DNA of 48,539 nt from Alphaproteobacteria bacterium (GTDB taxonomy: Bacteria; Pseudomonadota; Alphaproteobacteria; Rs-D84), in NCBI GenBank assembly GCA_017513285.1, contig JAFXGD010000001.1, forward strand, positions 1 to 48,539, read 5' to 3'. The notes below the pieces were generated by a model. That model was not told the origin of the DNA and ran no database searches. It saw only the letters and a program-made list of their open reading frames with translations. Each line of letters starts with the position of its first letter. The first letter of the stretch is position 1. Position numbers and translations under genes: made by a program. Below, in pieces: positions 2,147 through 48,539 of this stretch.

Positions 2147-3568
2147 ATGTACATCAAGAAATTGGAACTTTTGAATTTCCAAGTAATTGAGAAATTCGAC
2201 GCCGACTTTGACGGAACGGTTTATTTCGTGACCGGCGACAACGAATTGGGTAAATCCACGTTGTTAAAAGCAATCGGCGCATTGTTGACCGGCCAACGCG
2301 ACGACGTGTTGCGCAACGGCGCATCCAAGGGTTTTGCCAAAATGGTTGTGGGCGACGACGGCGAAGAATACGACGTACAATTGTCGTTCACGGAAGCGAA
2401 CCCACGCGGAACGCTTACCATCAAACAGAAAACAACCGGTATGGCGACCAACAACGTTTCGATGTTACAACGCATATTCGGGTATCAAGATTTCGACGCC
2501 GTGGAATTTTCCCGTTGGTCCGAAACCGCCGACGGCCGCCGCAAACAAATTGCCGTGGTTAAGGCCCTGTTGCCCGAAAAGGTCCGGAACCGGATTGCCG
2601 AAATTGACGAATCGGTAAAGACGTTGAAAGAGGAACGCACCGGCGTAAACCGCGACGTCAAGACGTTTGCCGGATTCGTGGACACGATGGCCAAACAGTT
2701 GGACCCGGACGACCTTAAAAAATACGCCGAACCCGTGGACGTTACCGAATTGATGGAACGCCAAGAAACCAACGCAAAGTTGATTGAAAAGGCCAAGACG
2801 GTACGCGCTGCGATTGAGCAACGCAAACAACAGATTGCCGCCATTCCGGGCCGCATCGAAGCGGAAAAGGCCAAGGCCGACGAAACCCGGGCCGTGTACG
2901 CCCAACGCGTGGAATCCGCCCGCATCCTGTACGAAAAGGCCATTGCCGAACAAAAGGAAGCGGAACAAAAGATTGTCGCCCAATACGACGCCAACGTTGC
3001 CGCCATTGAAGCGGAACGCGCCGATTTCGAAAGCCGCAAGGCCAACGGCGAAGATTGGATTAAACGGTACGAAGCGAACAACCCGGAAAACACCAACGTT
3101 CCGGCCCTGTTGGCGGAAGCGGAAGCCCATAACAAGCGTTACCACGTCGTTTGCCAATACAGGGAAAAGAAAGCCCAATACGACGCGTTCAAGGCCAAAT
3201 CCGAACAGATGGACGCCGACATTGCCAAATTGGCCGACGAACGCGCCACGTTGATTGCAAACGCCGAATTACCGATTGCCGGGTTGTCGTTCACGGACGA
3301 CGGGTTGGAATTGAACGGCGTTCCGTTCGTCCCCGGGAAAGTAAGCGATTCCCAAACGATGGAAATTGCGGCCAAATTGGTTATCGCATCCAATCCGAAA
3401 GTAAAGGTTTTCAGAATCGCCCGTGGCGAATCGTTGGGCCAAAAGCGGCTTGAAACGATTATTGACATTGCCCGCCGTAACGGATTCCAAGGGTTTTTAG
3501 AATGTGTTGTTAGAGGACAGGAAGAAATGCACATTGAAGAATATACGGAATTTCAGAAAAAACAGTAA
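2147..3568 (+). CDS. SMC/Rad50/SbcC-like AAA ATPase (recombination/repair)
   Basis: N-terminal MYIKKLELLNFQ...VTGDNELGKSTLL (P-loop), a long central coiled coil rich in A/E/K, and a C-terminal globular part. Confidence 0.7.
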   Translation: MYIKKLELLNFQVIEKFDADFDGTVYFVTGDNELGKSTLLKAIGALLTGQRDDVLRNGASKGFAKMVVGDDGEEYDVQLSFTEANPRGTLTIKQKTTGMATNNVSMLQRIFGYQDFDAVEFSRWSETADGRRKQIAVVKALLPEKVRNRIAEIDESVKTLKEERTGVNRDVKTFAGFVDTMAKQLDPDDLKKYAEPVDVTELMERQETNAKLIEKAKTVRAAIEQRKQQIAAIPGRIEAEKAKADETRAVYAQRVESARILYEKAIAEQKEAEQKIVAQYDANVAAIEAERADFESRKANGEDWIKRYEANNPENTNVPALLAEAEAHNKRYHVVCQYREKKAQYDAFKAKSEQMDADIAKLADERATLIANAELPIAGLSFTDDGLELNGVPFVPGKVSDSQTMEIAAKLVIASNPKVKVFRIARGESLGQKRLETIIDIARRNGFQGFLECVVRGQEEMHIEEYTEFQKKQ

Positions 3569-3573
3569 CTTTG
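3566..3573 (+). promoter_or_regulatory. -7 promoter motif TAACTTTG for the HNH cassette
   Basis: Matches TAnnTTTG and overlaps the stop codon of the ATPase gene. Confidence 0.5.
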
Positions 3574-3576
3574 CAA

Positions 3577-3668
3577 TGCGCGGATAGGATGAATTTGCAA
3601 CCCATCCGAAAAGGTACGCCGATTGCCCGGCCGCGCATTTTCAATCAATCGGCAACATATTAAATCGG
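3577..3668 (+). ncRNA. Structured 5' leader of an HNH gene (copy 1)
   Basis: Outer stem TGCGCGG/CCGCGCA, hairpin GGATG...CATCC. Internal CCGATTG (3619..3625) is complementary to CAATCGG (3646..3652) and to AATCGG (3663..3668). About 90% identical to 8558..8650 with compensatory changes. Confidence 0.6.
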
Positions 3669-3674
3669 CAAGAA

Positions 3675-4187
3675 ATGCAAAGTGAAATTTGGAAAGAAAT
3701 TCCCGGATACAACGGGCGTTATTTGATTAGTCAAACCGGCAATGTTTATTCGCGGTATCTTAAAAGGAAAATGAAACCGGCAAATCGTGGGAATGGTTAT
3801 TATTTTGTCCGTCTTTGTAATAAGGGGGAAATGAAAAATGTAATGATTCATAGACTTGTCGCGGCGGCCTTTGTACCGAATCCGGACGGATTAACGGAAA
3901 TTGACCATATAGACGGGAATAAGGAAAATAACGTTTATACCAATTTGCGTTACGTTTCCCATCTTGACAATATGAGAAACCCGAATACAGAACCACAACG
4001 ATTTGAAGCAATCCGAAAGAAACAAGGTATTCCCGTAATTGCTTTTTTGAACGGAAAACGTGTTGGGAAATATTCTTGTTTGATGGAAGCCGCCCGCGAT
4101 TTGGGTTTGTCCTGTTCACATATAGCAAAACATTTGAAAGGTTATTTTACCCACGTAAAAGGATATAAATTTGAACGGGTATGTTAG
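3675..4187 (+). CDS. HNH homing endonuclease (NUMOD4-like N-terminus plus HNH_3/AP2-like core)
   Basis: MQSEIWKEIPGY...G.V.S...HRLVAAAFVPNP...EIDHIDGNKENN...NLRYVSHLDNMRN. Paralogous to 7627, 8656, 22192 and 23886. Confidence 0.85.
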   Translation: MQSEIWKEIPGYNGRYLISQTGNVYSRYLKRKMKPANRGNGYYFVRLCNKGEMKNVMIHRLVAAAFVPNPDGLTEIDHIDGNKENNVYTNLRYVSHLDNMRNPNTEPQRFEAIRKKQGIPVIAFLNGKRVGKYSCLMEAARDLGLSCSHIAKHLKGYFTHVKGYKFERVC

Positions 4188-7626: not shown

Positions 7627-8217
7627 ATGGAAAACGAAATTTGGAAAGAAATTCCCGGCTATGCGGGAAAATATGAGGTTAGTAATTTCGGACGTGTTAA
7701 AAGTCTTGCCCGTAAGGTTTTATCCCGTAATGGCGGATTAAAGCCGATTCCCGAACGCATATTGAAACAATGCGTAATTAATGATTATTGCAACGTTATT
7801 TTGTGCGCCGATGGAAAGACACACAAACACGGATTGGTTCATAGATTGGTTGCGACTGTATTTGTTCCCAATCCCGAAAACAAACCTTTTATTGACCATT
7901 TAGACGGAAATTCAACCAATAACAGGGCCGATAATTTGCGTTGGTGTTCTCAAAGGGAAAATTGCCGGAATCCTATAACAACAAACCGAAATTCGATTGC
8001 AAAGCAAGGGGCCAACAATCCGCAATTTGGGAAAAGAAACGAACAGGTACATAATTCGCGGAAAATCGCTTGTTTTACAAAAGACGGAATATTTGTGCAA
8101 GTCTTTCCATCAATTGCGGAAGCGGTACGACAAATTAACGTCTTACAAAGCGGAATAACGCGTTGTGCTATGGGTAAGATTAAAACATCCGGCGGTTATA
8201 TTTGGCGGTATCTATGA
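7627..8217 (+). CDS. HNH homing endonuclease (NUMOD4/HNH_3-like paralogue)
   Basis: MENEIWKEIPGY...HRLVATVFVPNPENKPFIDHLDGNSTNNRADNLRWCSQRENCRN. Confidence 0.85.
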   Translation: MENEIWKEIPGYAGKYEVSNFGRVKSLARKVLSRNGGLKPIPERILKQCVINDYCNVILCADGKTHKHGLVHRLVATVFVPNPENKPFIDHLDGNSTNNRADNLRWCSQRENCRNPITTNRNSIAKQGANNPQFGKRNEQVHNSRKIACFTKDGIFVQVFPSIAEAVRQINVLQSGITRCAMGKIKTSGGYIWRYL

Positions 8218-8545: not shown

Positions 8546-8553
8546 TATATTTG
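8546..8553 (+). promoter_or_regulatory. -7 promoter motif TATATTTG for the HNH cassette
   Basis: Matches TAnnTTTG, at the same position relative to the leader as 3566..3573. Confidence 0.5.
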
Positions 8554-8557
8554 CCAT

Positions 8558-8650
8558 TGCGCGGATAGGATGAATTTGCAACCCATCCGAAAAGGTACGC
8601 CAATAGCCCGGCCGCGCATTTTCAATCTATTGGCAAAACTTAAATATTGG
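8558..8650 (+). ncRNA. Structured 5' leader of an HNH gene (copy 2)
   Basis: Outer stem TGCGCGG/CCGCGCA. Internal CCAATAG (8600..8606) is complementary to CTATTGG (8627..8633) and to TATTGG (8645..8650). Confidence 0.6.
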
Positions 8651-8655
8651 CAAAT

Positions 8656-9039
8656 ATGCAAAGTGAAATTTGGAAAGATGTACCCGGATTTCCGGGTTAT
8701 CAAGTAAGCAACGCCGGGCGCGTCCGTTCATTGCCGCGAACAGTAAAACGCGGGAACCATACAATGAACATTTCCGGTTCAATCTTGCGGTTTGGTACAA
8801 GTATGGGTTATCCCTTTGTAAACTTGCGAAAAGACGGCAAAAGTGTTTCGGTAAAGGTTCATAAATTGGTCGCATTGGTATTCGTTGAGAATCCGCAACA
8901 AAGGCCGGAAATTGACCATATCAATACGGACCGAAAGGATAACAGGCCGGAAAATTTACGTTGGGTTAATCGGCACGAAAACAATATGAACCCGATAACC
9001 CGTGAAAGAATGTCGAACGTTAAAAAACGAATAAAATGA
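8656..9039 (+). CDS. HNH homing endonuclease paralogue (short, 127 aa)
   Basis: MQSEIWKDVPGF...HKLVALVFVENP...EIDHINTDRKDNRPENLRWVNRHENNMN. Start set at ATG 8656 by homology with 3675. Confidence 0.8.
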   Translation: MQSEIWKDVPGFPGYQVSNAGRVRSLPRTVKRGNHTMNISGSILRFGTSMGYPFVNLRKDGKSVSVKVHKLVALVFVENPQQRPEIDHINTDRKDNRPENLRWVNRHENNMNPITRERMSNVKKRIK

Positions 9040-9472: not shown

Positions 9473-9991
9473 ATGCAAATTGACCGCAAAGATTACAACC
9501 CGGACCAACACGACGTTTTCAAGGCGTTGTCGGTCAAACAACCATACGCGGATTTGTTAACGCGTGTTGTGTTCCGGGATGAATCCGGCGAATACCACGC
9601 CGCAAAAACAATTGAGGTCCGCACCCGGAACACCAATTACCGGGGCGACCTGTTGGTTTGTTCGTCGGCCAAACCCGTGGACCCGTGGGGCCGATACCCG
9701 GCGGGCGTCACTTGCGGTTTCGTTGAACTGTACGACGTTAAACCAATCGAAGATTTCACGCCGGAAGATTGGGCCGCAACGTGTATTCCCGAACAGAACA
9801 GGCCGCGCAAGGGTTACGGATGGATGATGCGCAACCCGCGCCGCGTCGTGGAAATGCCTATTAAGGGCCAATTGGGCGTTTACAACCTTATCGTGCCGAA
9901 AGGCGACATTACAGAATATCCCCGGGCAATGGCCTTGGATTCCGACGGATGGGATATTGTGCAACAACGTGTTAAACCGAAAAGAAAATGA
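9473..9991 (+). CDS. ASCH-domain-like protein
   Basis: LSVKQPYADLL...KTIEVRTRNTNYRGDLLV resembles the ASCH/PUA-like N-terminal strand-helix motif. Confidence 0.45.
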   Translation: MQIDRKDYNPDQHDVFKALSVKQPYADLLTRVVFRDESGEYHAAKTIEVRTRNTNYRGDLLVCSSAKPVDPWGRYPAGVTCGFVELYDVKPIEDFTPEDWAATCIPEQNRPRKGYGWMMRNPRRVVEMPIKGQLGVYNLIVPKGDITEYPRAMALDSDGWDIVQQRVKPKRK

Positions 9992-10164
9992 CAATCAAGA
10001 CCATTTTATTGCCTGTTGAAAAGGCGGCATTTGTCCAAAAGAACGCGGCCGAATATGGTTGCAATTTGGTTGAACTTGCCGTTGCCGGTAACAATTCGGC
10101 CAAAGTGACCGTTACCGGCGAAGATGATAACGTAAAAAAATTGTTTGACGAAATCGGGGAATGA
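9988..10164 (+). CDS. hypothetical small protein (58 aa)
   Basis: Hand translation starts MTIKTILLPVEKAAF. ATGA overlaps at both ends. Confidence 0.5.
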   Translation: MTIKTILLPVEKAAFVQKNAAEYGCNLVELAVAGNNSAKVTVTGEDDNVKKLFDEIGE

Positions 10165-21096: not shown

Positions 21097-21609
21097 ATGG
21101 GAATATTAAACGACTTGCGCACCCGCGTTCAATCGGTAAACGACGGTATGGAAACCGGCGAATTGGTCCGTAACGTCATTGTCCAACATCCCGACGACAT
21201 TTTGGATTTGCAAAAAATGCAATTGTTCCAAGGGTTGGCGGCCAACGGCCAAGATATACGGCCGTATTATTCGGAAGATTTGAAACCGTCCGGGTTTTTT
21301 CATTCGGTCGAATCGGCGGGCCGGTACGCGGCTTGGAAAAAAGACGGTATCAATTACCCGTACAAAGCGAACAGGAACCCGGATGCGCCAAACCTGTACA
21401 TCAACGGCCGGTTTCACGACGAATTGGGCGTACAGTTTGCCGCCGATACCGTGGGAATCGTCCCGACAACGCCGTATTCGGCCGGGATTATGGCGAAATA
21501 CGGAATTACGACGTTCGGTTTGATGATGGCAAATTGGATGGTCGTATTTGTCCAACGCGGCGCATACGATGAATTGATGAATGAATTAAAAACACGTCTT
21601 TATGTCTAA
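21097..21609 (+). CDS. hypothetical head-tail-joining-region protein (170 aa)
   Basis: ORF track. Confidence 0.65.
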   Translation: MGILNDLRTRVQSVNDGMETGELVRNVIVQHPDDILDLQKMQLFQGLAANGQDIRPYYSEDLKPSGFFHSVESAGRYAAWKKDGINYPYKANRNPDAPNLYINGRFHDELGVQFAADTVGIVPTTPYSAGIMAKYGITTFGLMMANWMVVFVQRGAYDELMNELKTRLYV

Positions 21610-22195
21610 CACAAACGCACCCATCATCAAAAACCCGGTTATGTTGGACCGGGTAATTGGGGAAATACAAACCGGATTGGTTGAAAATTTGCCGTGGTTG
21701 GACGTGGCCTTTGGCCGGTCCCAACGTCTTACAAAGATGATGAACGGCAAAAAGATAATTACGCCGAATGTCTATTGCGGCGGATGGAACGGACACGGCG
21801 AAAACGATTACATCGAAACGTCCCCGGATGCCAAGATTGGCAATTTTTCGTTTTTCGAAATTGAGGACCCGCAAACCATTGACGCGGGGCCGTGGGCGCG
21901 TGAAATCAAAGCCCCGTTCGGCCTTATCGTTTGGTTCGATTTAACCCGGGTGTATGATGAACCGGACAACCGGAATACCGAATACATCAAAGCCCAAATC
22001 TTGCGCGTGTTGAACGGCCGGGCCGGTTGGCATTTGACCGGCGGGCGTATCATCTTGAACAGGATATACGAACGGGCCGAAAACATATACCGTGGTTACA
22101 CGCTTTCCGAAATTGACAACCAATTTTTGATGCACCCATATTACGGTATGCGATTTGATGGGATATTGGAATTTGATGAACTTTGTTTTGAATGA
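21602..22195 (+). CDS. hypothetical structural-module protein (197 aa)
   Basis: ORF track. Confidence 0.65.
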   Translation: MSNTNAPIIKNPVMLDRVIGEIQTGLVENLPWLDVAFGRSQRLTKMMNGKKIITPNVYCGGWNGHGENDYIETSPDAKIGNFSFFEIEDPQTIDAGPWAREIKAPFGLIVWFDLTRVYDEPDNRNTEYIKAQILRVLNGRAGWHLTGGRIILNRIYERAENIYRGYTLSEIDNQFLMHPYYGMRFDGILEFDELCFE

Positions 22196-23869: not shown

Positions 23870-23885
23870 TGAAAAATTTATGGTT

Positions 23886-24437
23886 ATGGAAATTTGGAAA
23901 AACATTGATGGTTACAAGCCAATTTATCAAGTAAGCGACGCGGGGCGCGTTCGTTCATTGGCCCGTGAAACAACGGCGCGTTATTCTATTCAACGAAAAA
24001 CAAGAATTTTGAAAATCGCAATTGACCACGTTGGTTATAATGTAGTTTATTTATATGACAATTCCGGGAAGCGGAAAACGGTACGCGTTCATCGTTTGGT
24101 CGCAATGGCCTTTGTTCCGAATCCCGACGGATTGCCGGAAATTGACCATATAGACGGCGAAAAAAAAAGGAATATTCCGGAAAATTTGCGTTGGGTTGAC
24201 CATAAAACCAATTGCAGAAACAAAAACACGGTTGTTGCACGGAAAAAATATGTTGGGGAAAAAGCAACACACCGAAAACGGATACGGGCGTATATGATGG
24301 ACGGAAAGATGGTTGGCGAATGGCCAACAATAACAATTGCGGCCCGTGAAACAGGGACAAATAGACATTCGATTTCTTATGCCGCAAATGGAAAATACAA
24401 AACGGCAAACAATTTAATTTGGAAATATTATGGATAA
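23886..24437 (+). CDS. HNH homing endonuclease paralogue
   Basis: MEIWKNIDGY...HRLVAMAFVPNPDGLPEIDHIDGEKKRNIPENLRWVDHKTNCRN. An alternative start lies at 23880. Confidence 0.85.
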   Translation: MEIWKNIDGYKPIYQVSDAGRVRSLARETTARYSIQRKTRILKIAIDHVGYNVVYLYDNSGKRKTVRVHRLVAMAFVPNPDGLPEIDHIDGEKKRNIPENLRWVDHKTNCRNKNTVVARKKYVGEKATHRKRIRAYMMDGKMVGEWPTITIAARETGTNRHSISYAANGKYKTANNLIWKYYG

Positions 24438-36605: not shown

Positions 36606-36709
36606 TTGGACGGTACAAGTTATCGTCCGCGCCGTAAAAGTGTTTTAAATCGAAGAAACGCGAAAAATAACTTATTTTGGCCCGAACTTGAAAAAATATA
36701 GAAAAAAGT

Positions 36710-36740
36710 TTTGGTAATTAAAAATAATTGCCTACCTTTG
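36710..36740 (+). promoter_or_regulatory. Bacteroidota-type promoter (TTTG 36710..36713, TACCTTTG 36733..36740, 19-nt spacer)
   Basis: Read directly. Confidence 0.75.
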
Positions 36741-36769
36741 TGCCGTGGTTGATATAACAATCCGACGGC

Positions 36770-36785
36770 CGGGGCCGGTTCCCCG
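36770..36785 (+). promoter_or_regulatory. Leader stem-loop CGGGG-CCGGTT-CCCCG
   Basis: The second stem pair is flipped relative to the other copies. Confidence 0.6.
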
Positions 36786-36804
36786 AACAAAAGTAACAAC
36801 AGTT

Positions 36805-39094: not shown

Positions 39095-39166
39095 CCCGGT
39101 TCGGCCCGGAATCTTGCACGAAAACCACAAATTTTTGCAAAAAATCGAAAAAATATAGAAAAAATG

Positions 39167-39197
39167 TTTGGTAATATAAAAAATTGTTGTACCTTTG
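39167..39197 (+). promoter_or_regulatory. Bacteroidota-type promoter (TTTG 39167..39170, TACCTTTG 39190..39197, 19-nt spacer)
   Basis: Read directly. Confidence 0.75.
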
Positions 39198-39225
39198 TAT
39201 CGGGTTCAAGATAGAACACCACGGC

Positions 39226-39241
39226 CCGGGCCGGTTCCCGG
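39226..39241 (+). promoter_or_regulatory. Leader stem-loop CCGGG-CCGGTT-CCCGG
   Basis: Hairpin family member. Confidence 0.6.
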
Positions 39242-39255
39242 TAAAGAAACAGACA

Positions 39256-40082: not shown

Positions 40083-40234
40083 TAAAATGGACCAACGGAC
40101 CGTCCGGCGGCCGAAAGGCCCGTAAAACGAAAATTCGGGAAAAATAAGTATTGGCCGGTTTGGCCCGGTCCCGGTTGGCCAAAAACGGTTTCTTAATGGC
40201 CGAAAAAGATTTTTTGAAAAATTATCAACTTTTT

Positions 40235-40265
40235 TTTGGTAATTAGGAAATAATGCCTATCTTTG
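40235..40265 (+). promoter_or_regulatory. Bacteroidota-type promoter (TTTG 40235..40238, TATCTTTG 40258..40265, 19-nt spacer)
   Basis: Read directly. Confidence 0.75.
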
Positions 40266-40294
40266 TACCCGGGTTGAGGAACCAACCAAACCGA

Positions 40295-40310
40295 CCCGGC
40301 GGGTTCCGGG
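40295..40310 (+). promoter_or_regulatory. Leader stem-loop CCCGG-CGGGTT-CCGGG
   Basis: The third stem pair is flipped relative to the other copies. Confidence 0.6.
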
Positions 40311-40330
40311 AAACAAAAACTTTACAAGTT

Positions 40331-46135: not shown

Positions 46136-46405
46136 ATGCCGACCAAAGTATTTACGACCATAACCGGCCCGTGTCCGTTCGGAAAGAACGTAACGATTGA
46201 TTCCCCGGGTTGCCGGTCGTGCGAACACTTTTACAGGACCGGAACCGGGATGTTCTTTTGGTGCAACGCCGGTTCCGAATCCGTCCCGAATATGACACGG
46301 GAAATATTGCACCCAAAACCCAAGCGTGGACGGCCACGAAAAACCGACGTCCCCGCAAAGGCCAAAAAGAAGCCCGTAAAGACACGCAAAAAGAAAAATG
46401 GATAA
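46136..46405 (+). CDS. Cys-rich small protein with a basic AT-hook-like tail (89 aa)
   Basis: GPCPFG...GCRSCEHF...FWC, then KRGRPRKTDVPAKAKKKPVKTRKKK. Confidence 0.6.
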   Translation: MPTKVFTTITGPCPFGKNVTIDSPGCRSCEHFYRTGTGMFFWCNAGSESVPNMTREILHPKPKRGRPRKTDVPAKAKKKPVKTRKKKNG

Positions 46406-46628
46406 GTTGTACCAAGACGGGACGAAATGCCCGCAAATCGAAAATTTGGAAAAAATAACGCCCGAACAGGCGGCCGAATACGTGCGTTTCGTCGCACACG
46501 TCCGGCACACGCAACGCCGGTATTTCACTTTCCGCAAACCGGAAATCTTGGATGAATCCCGGCGGTTGGAAAAAGAGTTGGACGCCCTTAACGCGCATTT
46601 GTTGGACCCAACGCCGAAATTGTTTTGA
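46398..46628 (+). CDS. hypothetical protein (copy of 199..429)
   Basis: Terminal repeat copy. Confidence 0.6.
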   Translation: MDKLYQDGTKCPQIENLEKITPEQAAEYVRFVAHVRHTQRRYFTFRKPEILDESRRLEKELDALNAHLLDPTPKLF

Positions 46629-46629
46629 T

Positions 46630-46881
46630 ATGACGAAAGAACAATGCGGCCGTTGCAAAATGTTGGATTGGATGAATACACGGACCGGCCCGAAAGACTG
46701 TTGCCGTTACTTTTATCCGCCGGAAGCGTTGGAAAACGTCGTGTGCAAACAAACCCAATACGGGTACGGTATTTTGGTTGAACCAAGTTTGAAAAAGGAT
46801 GAAAGGATTAAAACCGTTGACCGTTCCGTTGTTGGCCGTAAATCATTACGGCCCGGAACATCAAAAGCAAAAGGCCGTTGA
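46630..46881 (+). CDS. Cys-rich small protein (copy of 431..682)
   Basis: Terminal repeat copy. Confidence 0.5.
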   Translation: MTKEQCGRCKMLDWMNTRTGPKDCCRYFYPPEALENVVCKQTQYGYGILVEPSLKKDERIKTVDRSVVGRKSLRPGTSKAKGR

Positions 46882-47119
46882 AGAAATGGGCGAATTGATA
46901 ACCGCGTTGTCCCGGGAACAGGACGGCCGCGCCACGCCGGAACAGGTAATAACCGAAATCGCCGACGTTCATTTGATGTTACGCCAATTGATGGTTATTT
47001 ACGGGTTGGATGCCTGTTTGAAAGAATACGACCGGAAGCAACGCCGGTTGTTGCGCCGGATGGATAAGGAAAACGGCGGCGATTACCGAAAAGAAAAAGA
47101 CGATGGGAACAAAGGTTGA
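46799..47119 (+). CDS. mazG: MazG-like pyrophosphohydrolase (copy of 600..920)
   Basis: Terminal repeat copy. Confidence 0.6.
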   Translation: MKGLKPLTVPLLAVNHYGPEHQKQKAVEEMGELITALSREQDGRATPEQVITEIADVHLMLRQLMVIYGLDACLKEYDRKQRRLLRRMDKENGGDYRKEKDDGNKG

Positions 47120-47306
47120 CGCGTATATTGCACGGGACCCGAACGGGATTTGCCGGGTTATGGTCAAGCGGGCCAAATTCAAACATTGGTTCGAATTGGG
47201 CCAACACGGGCCGACCGACGCCGCGTTTGAACAGGCGTTGGCGGCCGGAACGGTCCGATGGAATCCGGCGATTGAGGACAAAACAAGACTTTTTCGAAAA
47301 ATTTAG
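47103..47306 (+). CDS. hypothetical protein (copy of 904..1107)
   Basis: Terminal repeat copy. Confidence 0.55.
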   Translation: MGTKVDAYIARDPNGICRVMVKRAKFKHWFELGQHGPTDAAFEQALAAGTVRWNPAIEDKTRLFRKI

Positions 47307-47315
47307 CGAAAAATG

Positions 47316-47346
47316 TTTGGAAATATAAAAATTATCCTTACCTTTG
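47316..47346 (+). promoter_or_regulatory. Bacteroidota-type promoter (copy of 1117..1147)
   Basis: Terminal repeat copy. Confidence 0.75.
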
Positions 47347-47405
47347 TATCGGGTTAAGGAAATGACCCAACCGCCCGGGCGGGTTCCCGGTTAAAGATTA
47401 AGACA

Positions 47406-47645
47406 ATGAGAACAGAAATTTTGAAACAGATGATGAACGCCAAGATTGGGGCGATTGCCGGAACGACTGTTGACGTAACCGTTTTGTCCGGACGAAAGAA
47501 AGGCGGAATTTATCTTACCGTGGAAATTGAGGGTAACAACACCAACGCCGTTTCCGCAATCGAAAATTTCTTTGGGCCGAAATTTGACGGTTCAGAATAT
47601 GACGAAGAATTGAACTATACGTATTGCGGAATCGAACTTGAATAA
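47406..47645 (+). CDS. hypothetical early protein (copy of 1207..1446)
   Basis: Terminal repeat copy. Confidence 0.7.
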   Translation: MRTEILKQMMNAKIGAIAGTTVDVTVLSGRKKGGIYLTVEIEGNNTNAVSAIENFFGPKFDGSEYDEELNYTYCGIELE

Positions 47646-47652
47646 CAGGAAT

Positions 47653-47723
47653 TGCGCCGTGGTGTAATGGTAACACCCAAGTTTTTGGCACTTGTATTCC
47701 CCGTTCGAATCGGGGCGGCGCAA
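47653..47723 (+). tRNA. tRNA-Gln (TTG), copy of 1454..1524
   Basis: Terminal repeat copy. Confidence 0.85.
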
Positions 47724-47731
47724 CAAAGAAT

Positions 47732-48205
47732 ATGAATAGAAAATACAAAAATACCGACGCGGAATTTATCGAAGCCGCCGCGCAATCAAAGAGTATTGCG
47801 GAAATGTGCCGCCGTCTTGGACGGTCGCAATTTGGCGGTTCATATAAGATTATCCACGCGAAAATACGGGAATTGAACATTGACATTTCCCATTTCACGG
47901 GTTCTGTATGGAATAAGGGTAAAACGGGCGGCGTTGGTCCCCGTGTCCCGGACAACATCGTATTTTCGGTTAATTCGCCGTATAAGTGTTCGAATAACTT
48001 GCGTAACCGGTTGTTTGTCGGCGGATATAAGGAAAGGAAATGCGAAATTTGCGGTAATACTGAATGGAACGGAAAACCGATTCCGTTACAGGTCTACCAC
48101 ATTAACGGGATAAACACGGATAACCGTTTGGAAAACTTGCAAATCCTTTGTCCGAATTGCCACGCACAAACGGAAACATACGCCGGAAAGAATAGTAAAA
48201 AATAA
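47732..48205 (+). CDS. HNH homing endonuclease (copy of 1533..2006)
   Basis: Terminal repeat copy. Confidence 0.85.
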   Translation: MNRKYKNTDAEFIEAAAQSKSIAEMCRRLGRSQFGGSYKIIHAKIRELNIDISHFTGSVWNKGKTGGVGPRVPDNIVFSVNSPYKCSNNLRNRLFVGGYKERKCEICGNTEWNGKPIPLQVYHINGINTDNRLENLQILCPNCHAQTETYAGKNSKK

Positions 48206-48206
48206 T

Positions 48207-48289
48207 GGCCCTTTGGCGAAATTGGGATACGCGCAAAACTCAAAATTTTGTACCTTAACGGTGTGCCGGTTCGATTCCGGCAAGGGCCA
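48207..48289 (+). tRNA. tRNA-Leu (CAA), copy of 2008..2090
   Basis: Terminal repeat copy. Confidence 0.85.
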
Positions 48290-48345
48290 CAAAACCGACC
48301 GGGCGGATTCCCGGGATGTTAAACCAATAAACAGGCGATACAATT

Positions 48346-48539
48346 ATGTACATCAAGAAATTGGAACTTTTGAATTTCCAAGTAATTGAGAAATTCGACG
48401 CCGACTTTGACGGAACGGTTTATTTCGTGACCGGCGACAACGAATTGGGTAAATCCACGTTGTTAAAAGCAATCGGCGCATTGTTGACCGGCCAACGCGA
48501 CGACGTGTTGCGCAACGGCGCATCCAAGGGTTTTGCCAA
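48346..48539 (+). CDS. 5' fragment of the SMC/Rad50-like ATPase (copy of 2147..2340, cut by the window end)
   Basis: Terminal repeat copy. Confidence 0.7.
   Translation, partial: MYIKKLELLNFQVIEKFDADFDGTVYFVTGDNELGKSTLLKAIGALLTGQRDDVLRNGASKGFA

Follow-up and report, generated by a model that had tools for sequence, protein, structure and literature searches.

Why should two homing-endonuclease genes of one phage share a leader that is far better conserved than the proteins they encode? This question is raised by contig JAFXGD010000001.1 (GenBank assembly GCA_017513285.1, recorded as an Alphaproteobacteria bacterium), of which positions 1 to 48,539, the whole stretch analysed, are called the window here. 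Two open reading frames (ORFs) of the window, starting at ATG 3675 and ATG 8656, both open with MQSEIWK, and each is preceded by a leader (copy 1 and copy 2; Table 1). The two leaders had been described in an initial annotation as about 90% identical; their near-identity holds, with a value of 85% (ungapped, over 135 nt), whereas the two NUMOD4+HNH_3 proteins are 39% identical. The conservation of the leader therefore goes far beyond that of its genes.

The answer that we regard as probable is that the two copies represent a portable promoter-plus-leader module, which gates translation through two competing pairings. Each copy would be the expression module of a selfish homing-type nuclease gene and would combine a host-type promoter with a structured mRNA leader of about 100 nt. 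The RNA is predicted to fold into a three-way junction of the stems P1, P2 and P3, in which the 9-nt loop of P3 would expose a 7-nt element, site A, and this site would pair, as an H-type pseudoknot, with one of two near-identical complements, sites B and C. Pairing of A with C would block ribosome loading and turn translation off; pairing of A with B would occupy site A and leave the start site free, and the choice between the two most likely sets the amount of nuclease.

The promoter box, outer stem (P1), inner hairpin (P2), sites A, B and C and both ATGs were all found at the positions originally assigned to them. Site A reads CCGATTG in copy 1 (3619-3625) and CCAATAG in copy 2 (8600-8606), and two positions differ between the copies in each of the three sites, each time complementarily. 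Over the interval from P1 to site B there are four differences in all, and these make up both compensated pairs. In copy 1, the A:B helix reaches 8 bp through G3625.

Structure and covariation of the leader

The leader family has a common order of elements: promoter box, P1, UA, P2 (first base G), GAAA, GAUAA or GACAA, P3, 0-3 nt and the 3' strand of P1; a linker rich in U then leads to site B, and a spacer separates B from site C and the AUG. In 62 of 66 leaders (counts out of 66, here and below, refer to the distinct leaders among the matches listed), P1 is preceded at a distance of 1-6 nt by a TAnnTTT[GA] box. Site B begins 5-10 nt beyond P1, and B and C are direct repeats of each other.

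A plain MAFFT alignment analysed with RNAalifold recovered P1 with covariation, and P1 only, because differences in loop length misalign P2 and P3; a structural alignment of 26 sequences was therefore made by hand in blocks padded with N. In this alignment, 97.7% of the cells are paired with A:B and 96.0% with A:C, and 21 of 28 pairs are changed on both sides, whereas none of 500 shuffles reached the observed values and sliding of the 3' partners lowered the pairing to 30-51%. P1 covaries throughout the family by GC/CG and AU/GC swaps. P2 is paired in 100% of cases, with four of its six pairs changed on both sides, and P3 (GGGC/GCCC and others) likewise in 100%, with covariation in five of five. 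For A:B (99% paired) all seven core pairs covary, as do all seven of A:C (93% paired). The covariation that the two copies had led one to expect in a larger alignment is thus present in every helix, both alternative pairings of site A included, and the outer stem, the inner hairpin and the 7-mer with two downstream partners recur with it in many relatives.

Support independent of the hand-made alignment comes from the P1 stem found by RNAalifold, from the covariance-model matches described below, in which the sequences of P1 and P2 differ yet stay complementary, and from a permutation in which P3 loops were set against the tails of other members: the observed complementarity was 303, and the maximum in 20000 permutations was 247 (none reaching the observed value). 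Moreover, G.U is found in 45 cells and A.C in 4, which indicates that the structure belongs to the RNA of the sense-strand transcript.

The stem P3 (3613-3615/3625-3627 in copy 1) had been overlooked in the initial annotation, the other described elements of which stand. Since the loop of P3, of about 9 nt, exposes site A, the fold amounts to a three-way junction with an H-type pseudoknot. Two loop nucleotides precede the A helix in 45 of 66 leaders, and the number that follow it is 0 or -1 in 58 of 66; the helices have 6-9 bp. H-type pseudoknots have a loop 1 of 1-2 nt across a stem 2 of 6-7 bp and a loop 2 of about 0 nt, which allows coaxial stacking, and the predicted A helix has this textbook geometry, with stacking on P3. 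Even very divergent members have almost the same junction nucleotides (J1/2 is UA followed by G; J2/3 is GAAA, GAUAA or GACAA). The predicted structure, three stems and a pseudoknot, is held with high confidence on these comparative grounds.

An earlier proposal for P3 (C3617-G3629 and G3618-C3628, with one apparent compensatory change) was superseded by the homologous GGGC/GCCC stem. The core of a hammerhead or other ribozyme was also considered and rejected: J1/2 has only UA(G), not CUGANGA, and no ribozyme of Rfam matched. A third candidate was a leader peptide, encoded by a small ORF at 3590-3662 (MNLQPIRKGTPIARPRIFNQSATY, ATG 3590), in which both changes of site A are synonymous (Pro-Ile-Ala). 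It was ruled out by the non-synonymous differences N2K, P5T, T10K and R14L, by the lack of conservation of the C-terminus and stop codon, and by divergent family members that have no such ORF, and the synonymous changes are probably a coincidence.

Distribution and alleles

Relatives were sought in several ways (their loci are given L numbers below). Scans of viral sequences and one scan of metagenomes, with the exact or near-exact window-type leader as pattern, gave about 13 near-identical leaders of three alleles in related 44-47-kb phages (viral and metagenome contigs); the matches to a loose 16-base pattern in the viral scan were mostly due to chance. In the third allele (A CCGATAG, B TATCGG, C TATCGG) all three sites have changed in step, and the outermost pair of P1 has turned from U-A to A-U. 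The only single-sided changes of A:B in these close relatives are C-to-U changes at helix ends, which yield G.U.

A covariance model built from window-like leaders only was used to search 80 loci, which had been fetched through the proteins as homologues of HNH genes. It found about 25 divergent leaders, with scores from 74 to 21 bits (E = 4e-14 to about 1e-5). The majority end at the ATG of the HNH gene used for fetching; in L111, L136, L139, L145 and others the leader stands before a neighbouring gene, about 0.5 to 1 kb upstream. A pattern of the conserved core matched at least 120 stretches in the viral scan, with at least about 70 true leaders among the matches listed, and in genome records it gave 14 matches, all 14 of which are true members. 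In total, a structure-aware scanner distinguished at least 66 leaders with at least about 20 different A/B/C alleles, always with the three sites in step, and the preservation of pairing first noticed in the two window copies thus extends to the third allele and to the family.

The leader is found, unannotated, before an I-HmuI-like endonuclease gene of the cultured Parabacteroides phage PD491P1 (host P. distasonis DA491; leader at 21491-21628 of OP172815.1), in genome records of Segatella, Prevotella, Leyella, Cryptobacteroides and Flavobacteriales, and on contigs of metagenome-assembled genomes labelled Clostridia, Oscillospiraceae and Roseburia. The family is widespread in gut and rumen phages. 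A 617-nt contig recorded as Vibrio olivae (L294, NZ_JBHMEP010000084.1) also carries a leader of the Bacteroidota-phage type and the start of an HNH gene, and is most likely a contaminant.

Two loci have peculiar arrangements. L003 bears a window-type leader at site 1 and, at another place in the genome, a second, divergent member with the sites A GCAACCU, B AGGUUGC and C AGGUUGU (9894-10014 on the minus strand of the locus); this one precedes a gene for a 129-aa protein beginning with MSKEIWK. At 258-406 of L005, a 24-nt tandem duplication (CCGAAAAGGTACGCCAATAGCCCGG repeated) doubles J2/3, P3 and site A; either the assembly is in error here, or a true variant with two A loops may exist.

The search of Rfam that had been proposed for the leader matched no family. 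Rfam 15 at the gathering threshold found only tRNAs in the whole window, permissive searches gave only noise for 3500-3760 (E up to 10), and no match to the leader was obtained in eight divergent member loci (E up to 1). Full-text searches of the literature found no description of the motif. It is absent from the main text of a catalogue published in 2023, which covers more than 10,000 candidate phage RNAs (PMC10690425) and may include the motif without a name.

The start site and the switch

Site C lies close to the start of translation. In 59 of 66 leaders, 0-5 nt separate its end from the AUG, and in L211, L245 and L300 the AUG lies within it. Five members have no Bacteroidota box (L166, L167, L257, L297 and L079); their site C consists of the Shine-Dalgarno-like GGAGG or GAGG, 3 to 8 nt ahead of the AUG, and their site A resembles CUCC. 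Site C is thus the GGAGG in those cases where the hosts use Shine-Dalgarno sequences. The logic of a translational switch, which had been read from the two window copies, is reinforced by members in which C coincides with a Shine-Dalgarno sequence or the AUG itself: A, B and C are an anti-start-site element, a decoy and the start site. An RNA pairing over the Shine-Dalgarno sequence or AUG, by which homing-endonuclease ORFs of the T4 type are known, exists here as the covarying A:C, and the combination typical of riboswitches, a covarying structured core with a platform for alternative pairing, is present as well. Calculated duplex energies average -11.2 kcal/mol for A:B and -10.2 kcal/mol for A:C, with A:B the more stable in 32 of 43 cases; as modelled, the two are nearly isoenergetic, so that the balance can be tipped.

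From this we infer that the two pairings gate translation, and we hold the translational mechanism with moderate confidence. What the comparison shows is the fold, the two alternative partners of site A, where these partners lie with respect to the AUG, and that the leader is linked to nuclease genes. Several points weigh against the reading. Transcription start, folding and effect on translation are all deduced. Nested minimum free energy folds of the window leaders are no more stable than those of shuffled sequence (z = +0.9 and +0.1), and the case for structure must therefore be comparative, not thermodynamic. The comparative data in turn lean towards the model, through the hand-made blocks of the alignment and through a family scanner that requires pairing. 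Because B is transcribed first and is usually the slightly more stable partner, the default state is predicted to be ON, and a simple model without a trigger leaves the kept complementarity to C unexplained. In addition, Bacteroidota do not rely on Shine-Dalgarno pairing, and a block of initiation there by the 7-bp helix at -12 to -6 would be of uncertain strength. Since complementarity to C is maintained, something must favour A:C, and a ligand, RNA dimerisation and folding kinetics are possible triggers.

The first of these would make the leader an orphan riboswitch or a sensor of a protein factor, with the three-way junction as the aptamer: binding of a metabolite, an ion or a factor of the host or phage would make the pseudoknot of P3 and A:B more stable and thereby set the choice between A:B and A:C. 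This idea, which would refine the gating model rather than replace it, we consider possible though not probable. The near-invariance of J1/2 and J2/3 suggests a riboswitch-like role or a bound ligand or factor, the fold is much more elaborate than a hairpin over a ribosome-binding site requires, and the succession of anti-ribosome-binding site, decoy and ribosome-binding site is the standard layout of translational riboswitches. However, the leader has no likeness to the riboswitch models of Rfam, its gene context is not metabolic and suggests no ligand, and a signal that a selfish nuclease gene should sense is not evident.

RNA dimerisation would give control by RNA dosage: the P2 loops would kiss, site A would pair in trans with site C of the other RNA, and expression would be shut off as transcripts accumulate. 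The P2 loops vary in sequence and remain palindromic over 6-8 nt (GUAGCUAC, UAAUUA, UUGCAA, UUUGCAAA and GUCAUGAC), which suggests kissing; their self-complementary hexamers, UUGCAA in the window and UAAUUA, (G)UAGCUA(C) and (G)UCAUGA(C) elsewhere, are like those of a dimerisation initiation site, and the format as a whole resembles that of HIV-1. The palindromes from outside the window are those of L123, L138, L139 and L068. Dimerisation would also account for the retention of both B and C, and could explain why two copies in one genome, with the same P2 loop, differ in their A/B/C allele. Nevertheless, we judge it unlikely: each palindrome by itself is only modestly improbable (shuffle frequencies of 0.02-0.16), L137 has no palindrome and L115 only the 4-mer GUAC, and most of the loops were found by a search pattern that fixed half of the loop. 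The copies differ in allele in all four of the two-copy genomes, which is not significant given the number of alleles.

Whether by ligand or by dimer, it seems rather doubtful that selfish nuclease genes contain here a new class of sensing RNA, namely an infection-state riboswitch or a self-dimerising meter of concentration that works through the P2 loop. In the dimer case, the anti-start-site loop would move from the cis decoy B to the start site C. If such sensing were true, the varying 7-mers would be natural orthogonal addresses that prevent cross-talk between cassettes in one cell.

Genes, cassettes and phage context

Table 1. Features of the two window leaders and the genes that they precede
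Copy	Feature	Position	Strand	Sequence	Remark
1	-7 promoter box (putative)	3566..3573	+	TAACTTTG	by sequence; Bacteroidota-type
1	P1, 5' strand	3575..3583	+	AAUGCGCGG	partner 3631-3639; core UGCGCGG 3577-3583
1	P2 hairpin	3587..3607	+	GGAUG/CAUCC	11-nt loop; loop palindrome UUGCAA 3595-3600
1	P3 hairpin	3613..3627	+		GGU 3613-3615 pairs with GCC 3625-3627; 9-nt loop 3616-3624
1	Site A	3618-3624	+	GCCGAUU	inside P3 loop; CCGATTG = 3619-3625
1	P1, 3' strand	3631..3639	+	CCGCGCAUU	core CCGCGCA 3631-3637; U-rich linker next
1	Site B	3646..3653	+	CAAUCGGC	proximal partner of site A, 8 bp; CAATCGG 3646-3652
1	Site C	3663..3669	+	AAUCGGC	distal partner of site A, 7 bp; 5 nt from AUG
1	Controlled gene	3675..4187	+		170 aa; NUMOD4 + HNH_3 + NUMOD1 homing-type endonuclease (Pfam)
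2	-7 promoter box (putative)	8546..8553	+	TATATTTG	by sequence
2	P1, 5' strand	8558..8564	+	UGCGCGG	partner 8612-8618
2	P2 hairpin	8568..8588	+	GGAUG-N11-CAUCC	loop palindrome UUGCAA 8576-8581
2	P3 hairpin	8594..8608	+		8594-8596 pairs with 8606-8608; site A GCCAAUA in loop, 8599-8605
2	P1, 3' strand	8612..8618	+	CCGCGCA	
2	Site B	8627..8634	+	CUAUUGGC	CTATTGG = 8627-8633
2	Site C	8645..8651	+	UAUUGGC	4 nt from AUG; TATTGG = 8645-8650
2	Controlled gene	8656..9039	+		127 aa; NUMOD4 + HNH_3 endonuclease (Pfam)

The gene downstream of the leader is in the majority of cases of the NUMOD4+HNH_3 type; others encode GIY-YIG+NUMOD3 and PD-(D/E)XK (PDDEXK_5) proteins, a DUF4379 treble-clef protein, an AP2-like protein and several proteins of no known family. 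The initial annotation had considered the architecture to be outside any described RNA family and attached to NUMOD4/HNH_3-type genes; the former agrees with the Rfam searches, and the latter is too narrow, as the leader is neither specific to NUMOD4/HNH genes nor to the window phage. Because unrelated nuclease families share it, recognition by the encoded protein is disfavoured and a generic module of homing-endonuclease genes favoured. Synteny mapping of related phages placed the cassette of promoter, leader and nuclease gene at no fewer than five different intergenic sites. Allele 1 accompanies the 170-aa HNH type in the window and L069, and allele 2 accompanies it in L003, although the proteins of the window and L003 share 78% of their residues and differ little in their C-terminal DNA-binding parts; the allele thus depends on neither the insertion site nor the protein. 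Since one protein type carries different alleles and unrelated nuclease families have the leader, the autoregulation by the HNH protein that had been envisaged is unlikely.

These data also bear on the idea that the 7-mers act in DNA, as an operator for a repressor (for example, the nuclease itself) or as signals for recombination or homing. Three short sites near a promoter, differing between paralogous cassettes, are what would be expected of matched pairs of operator and protein, the cassette is found at those several intergenic sites, and I-TevI is an autorepressor of its promoter, with an operator similar in sequence to the site of homing (PMC2988022). The leader resembles the I-TevI operator in that a homing-endonuclease gene has short sites near its own promoter. 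In contrast to that operator, which overlaps the promoter (PMC2988022), the sites here are part of the leader that is transcribed, downstream of the promoter box (about +45 to +95) and not over it; G.U is accepted in them, and they do not go with a particular encoded protein. The excess of G.U over A.C is strand-specific and points to RNA, P1, P2 and P3 covary as well, HNH proteins of 78% identity carry different alleles, the leader is common to unrelated nuclease folds, and the 8-mers are not enriched elsewhere in the genome. Hence a DNA-level role, which the initial annotation had named as the alternative, is highly improbable.

The same 8-mers of the alleles, searched elsewhere in the window as candidate trans targets or operators, gave no enrichment, and TAnnTTTG matches 44 times across the window against 39.6 expected, which is not significant. 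The box is read as a promoter because its position before P1 is fixed throughout the family, not because of enrichment in the window, and TAnnTTT[GA] is accordingly a putative promoter. In copy 1, the box TAACTTTG overlaps the stop codon of the preceding AAA-ATPase gene (2147-3568). Two of the four HNH genes of the window genome have the structured leader; a search upstream of the other two (7627-8217 and 23880-24437) did not find it. These two NUMOD4/HNH genes have an TAAATTTG box and a short plain leader only.

The HNH stop codon of copy 2 overlaps the ATG of the SSB gene (ATGA, 9036-9039), and the related phage L002 (positions 1-545) lacks the equivalent of window 8554-9035 and has, at this empty site 2, the promoter box, 21 nt and the SSB ATG. 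The cassette therefore stands between the essential SSB gene and the position of its promoter, and SSB probably needs read-through of the leader; no other promoter box was found between the copy 2 leader and SSB. In the Alistipes phage AS73P1, a relative of the window phage, the homologue of the ATPase gene is followed by no nuclease gene, only by a 41-nt gap and the next gene.

Such read-through bears on the suggestion that the leader attenuates or insulates transcription, or else stabilises the 5' end or signals its processing, in which case P1 and the U-tract would stop or pause transcription and B and C would be secondary. As variants, a small RNA of about 65 nt might be released, or the 5'-terminal junction might protect the mRNA or direct its cleavage. 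Nearly all members have a U-rich tract after P1, only a few nucleotides separate P1 from the predicted start of transcription, and T4-type homing endonuclease genes are also under the control of terminators and RNase E processing (PMC2988022). On the other hand, P1 encloses about 45 nt of structure and is unlike the simple hairpin of an intrinsic terminator, and the U-run is partly paired with upstream A residues, which extend P1. The strict covariation of A with both B and C and the fixed place of C at the start codon would be left unexplained, and strong termination in copy 2 would be costly, as no other box precedes SSB and the promoter of L002 has the same position. We therefore regard this reading as distinctly unlikely in place of translational gating; a role of P1 and the U-tract as attenuator or 5' stabiliser in an extra layer is possible.

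The ends of the window are identical (1-2340 = 46200-48539, as judged from direct repeats, duplicated tRNAs and the spacing of 46199 nt), and the tRNA genes at 1454-1524 and 2008-2090 recur at 47653 and 48207. From repeats with this spacing, the window represents a circularly permuted or terminally redundant phage genome of about 46.2 kb. This genome contains another repeated intergenic family (36709-36792, 39166-39249, 40234-40317, and also 1095-1195 and 47294-47394), which consists of TTTTGGTAAT, an A/T-rich stretch, a TAnCTTTG box and a conserved leader, in which there is an inverted repeat rich in G+C (such as CCGGGGCCGGTTCCCCG). Probably this family represents a second class of modules with promoter and leader, which may serve late genes.

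Comparison with known systems

Pseudoknotted translational riboswitches, such as those of the SAM-II, preQ1 and ZTP types, have a covarying core in the 5' untranslated region and an anti-ribosome-binding site with two mutually exclusive partners, as is the case here. However, the leader has no match in Rfam, and its controlled genes are selfish nucleases, not genes of metabolism or transport. The 5' leader of HIV-1 likewise combines a hairpin loop that holds a purine-flanked 6-nt palindrome with an element that has alternative partners, one of which lies over the AUG region, and the likeness ends there: sequence and size are unrelated, the palindromic loop of the present leader is not among the alternative partners, and its dimerisation is only predicted. 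The PeSL cassettes of T4-type phages, which consist of a promoter and a simple stem-loop before variable ORFs, are thought to act in DNA recombination. Like them, the present module is a promoter with structured sequence repeated at many intergenic sites, which could promote modular shuffling; unlike them, it shows covariation of the RNA type and has a pairing partner fixed at the start codon.

The closest functional likeness is to homing endonuclease genes of the T4 type (I-TevI, I-TevII, I-TevIII, segB and Aeh1 mobE), which are regulated by RNA structures that sequester the ribosome-binding site (PMC2988022). In both, a cis RNA structure lies just upstream of a phage homing-endonuclease ORF, over the ribosome-binding region, the promoter belongs to the same short module, and the presumed purpose is to limit the synthesis of the nuclease. 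The T4-type hairpins are simple and lineage-specific, and have a late promoter inside the hairpin, so that late transcripts have no 5' arm (PMC2988022). In contrast to this, the promoter of the present module lies upstream of the entire structure (in 62 of 66 leaders), and no conserved promoter box exists between sites A and C, the near-match TGAATTTG in the P2 loop of the window being unconserved. Moreover, the leader has a conserved three-way junction with an H-type pseudoknot, in which the decoy B competes with the start-site copy C, and one fold is common to unrelated nuclease families and to phages of Bacteroidota and Clostridia. In short, the leader is most likely a case of the known type of translational control of phage homing-endonuclease genes by RNA structure, with an RNA fold that has no match in Rfam.

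Implications

The cultured pair of PD491P1 and P. distasonis DA491 makes the leader directly testable. The approximately 20 A/B/C alleles on one scaffold could serve as orthogonal parts for translational control in Bacteroides engineering, and the palindromic P2 loop adds one more candidate to the few natural RNAs that may act as homodimers. If the translational reading holds, phages of the gut and rumen have many unrelated homing-endonuclease genes under the control of a single portable RNA module. This would then be a general answer to the question of how phage hosts tolerate selfish nucleases, and would extend the T4 paradigm to Bacteroidota, whose initiation works without Shine-Dalgarno pairing.

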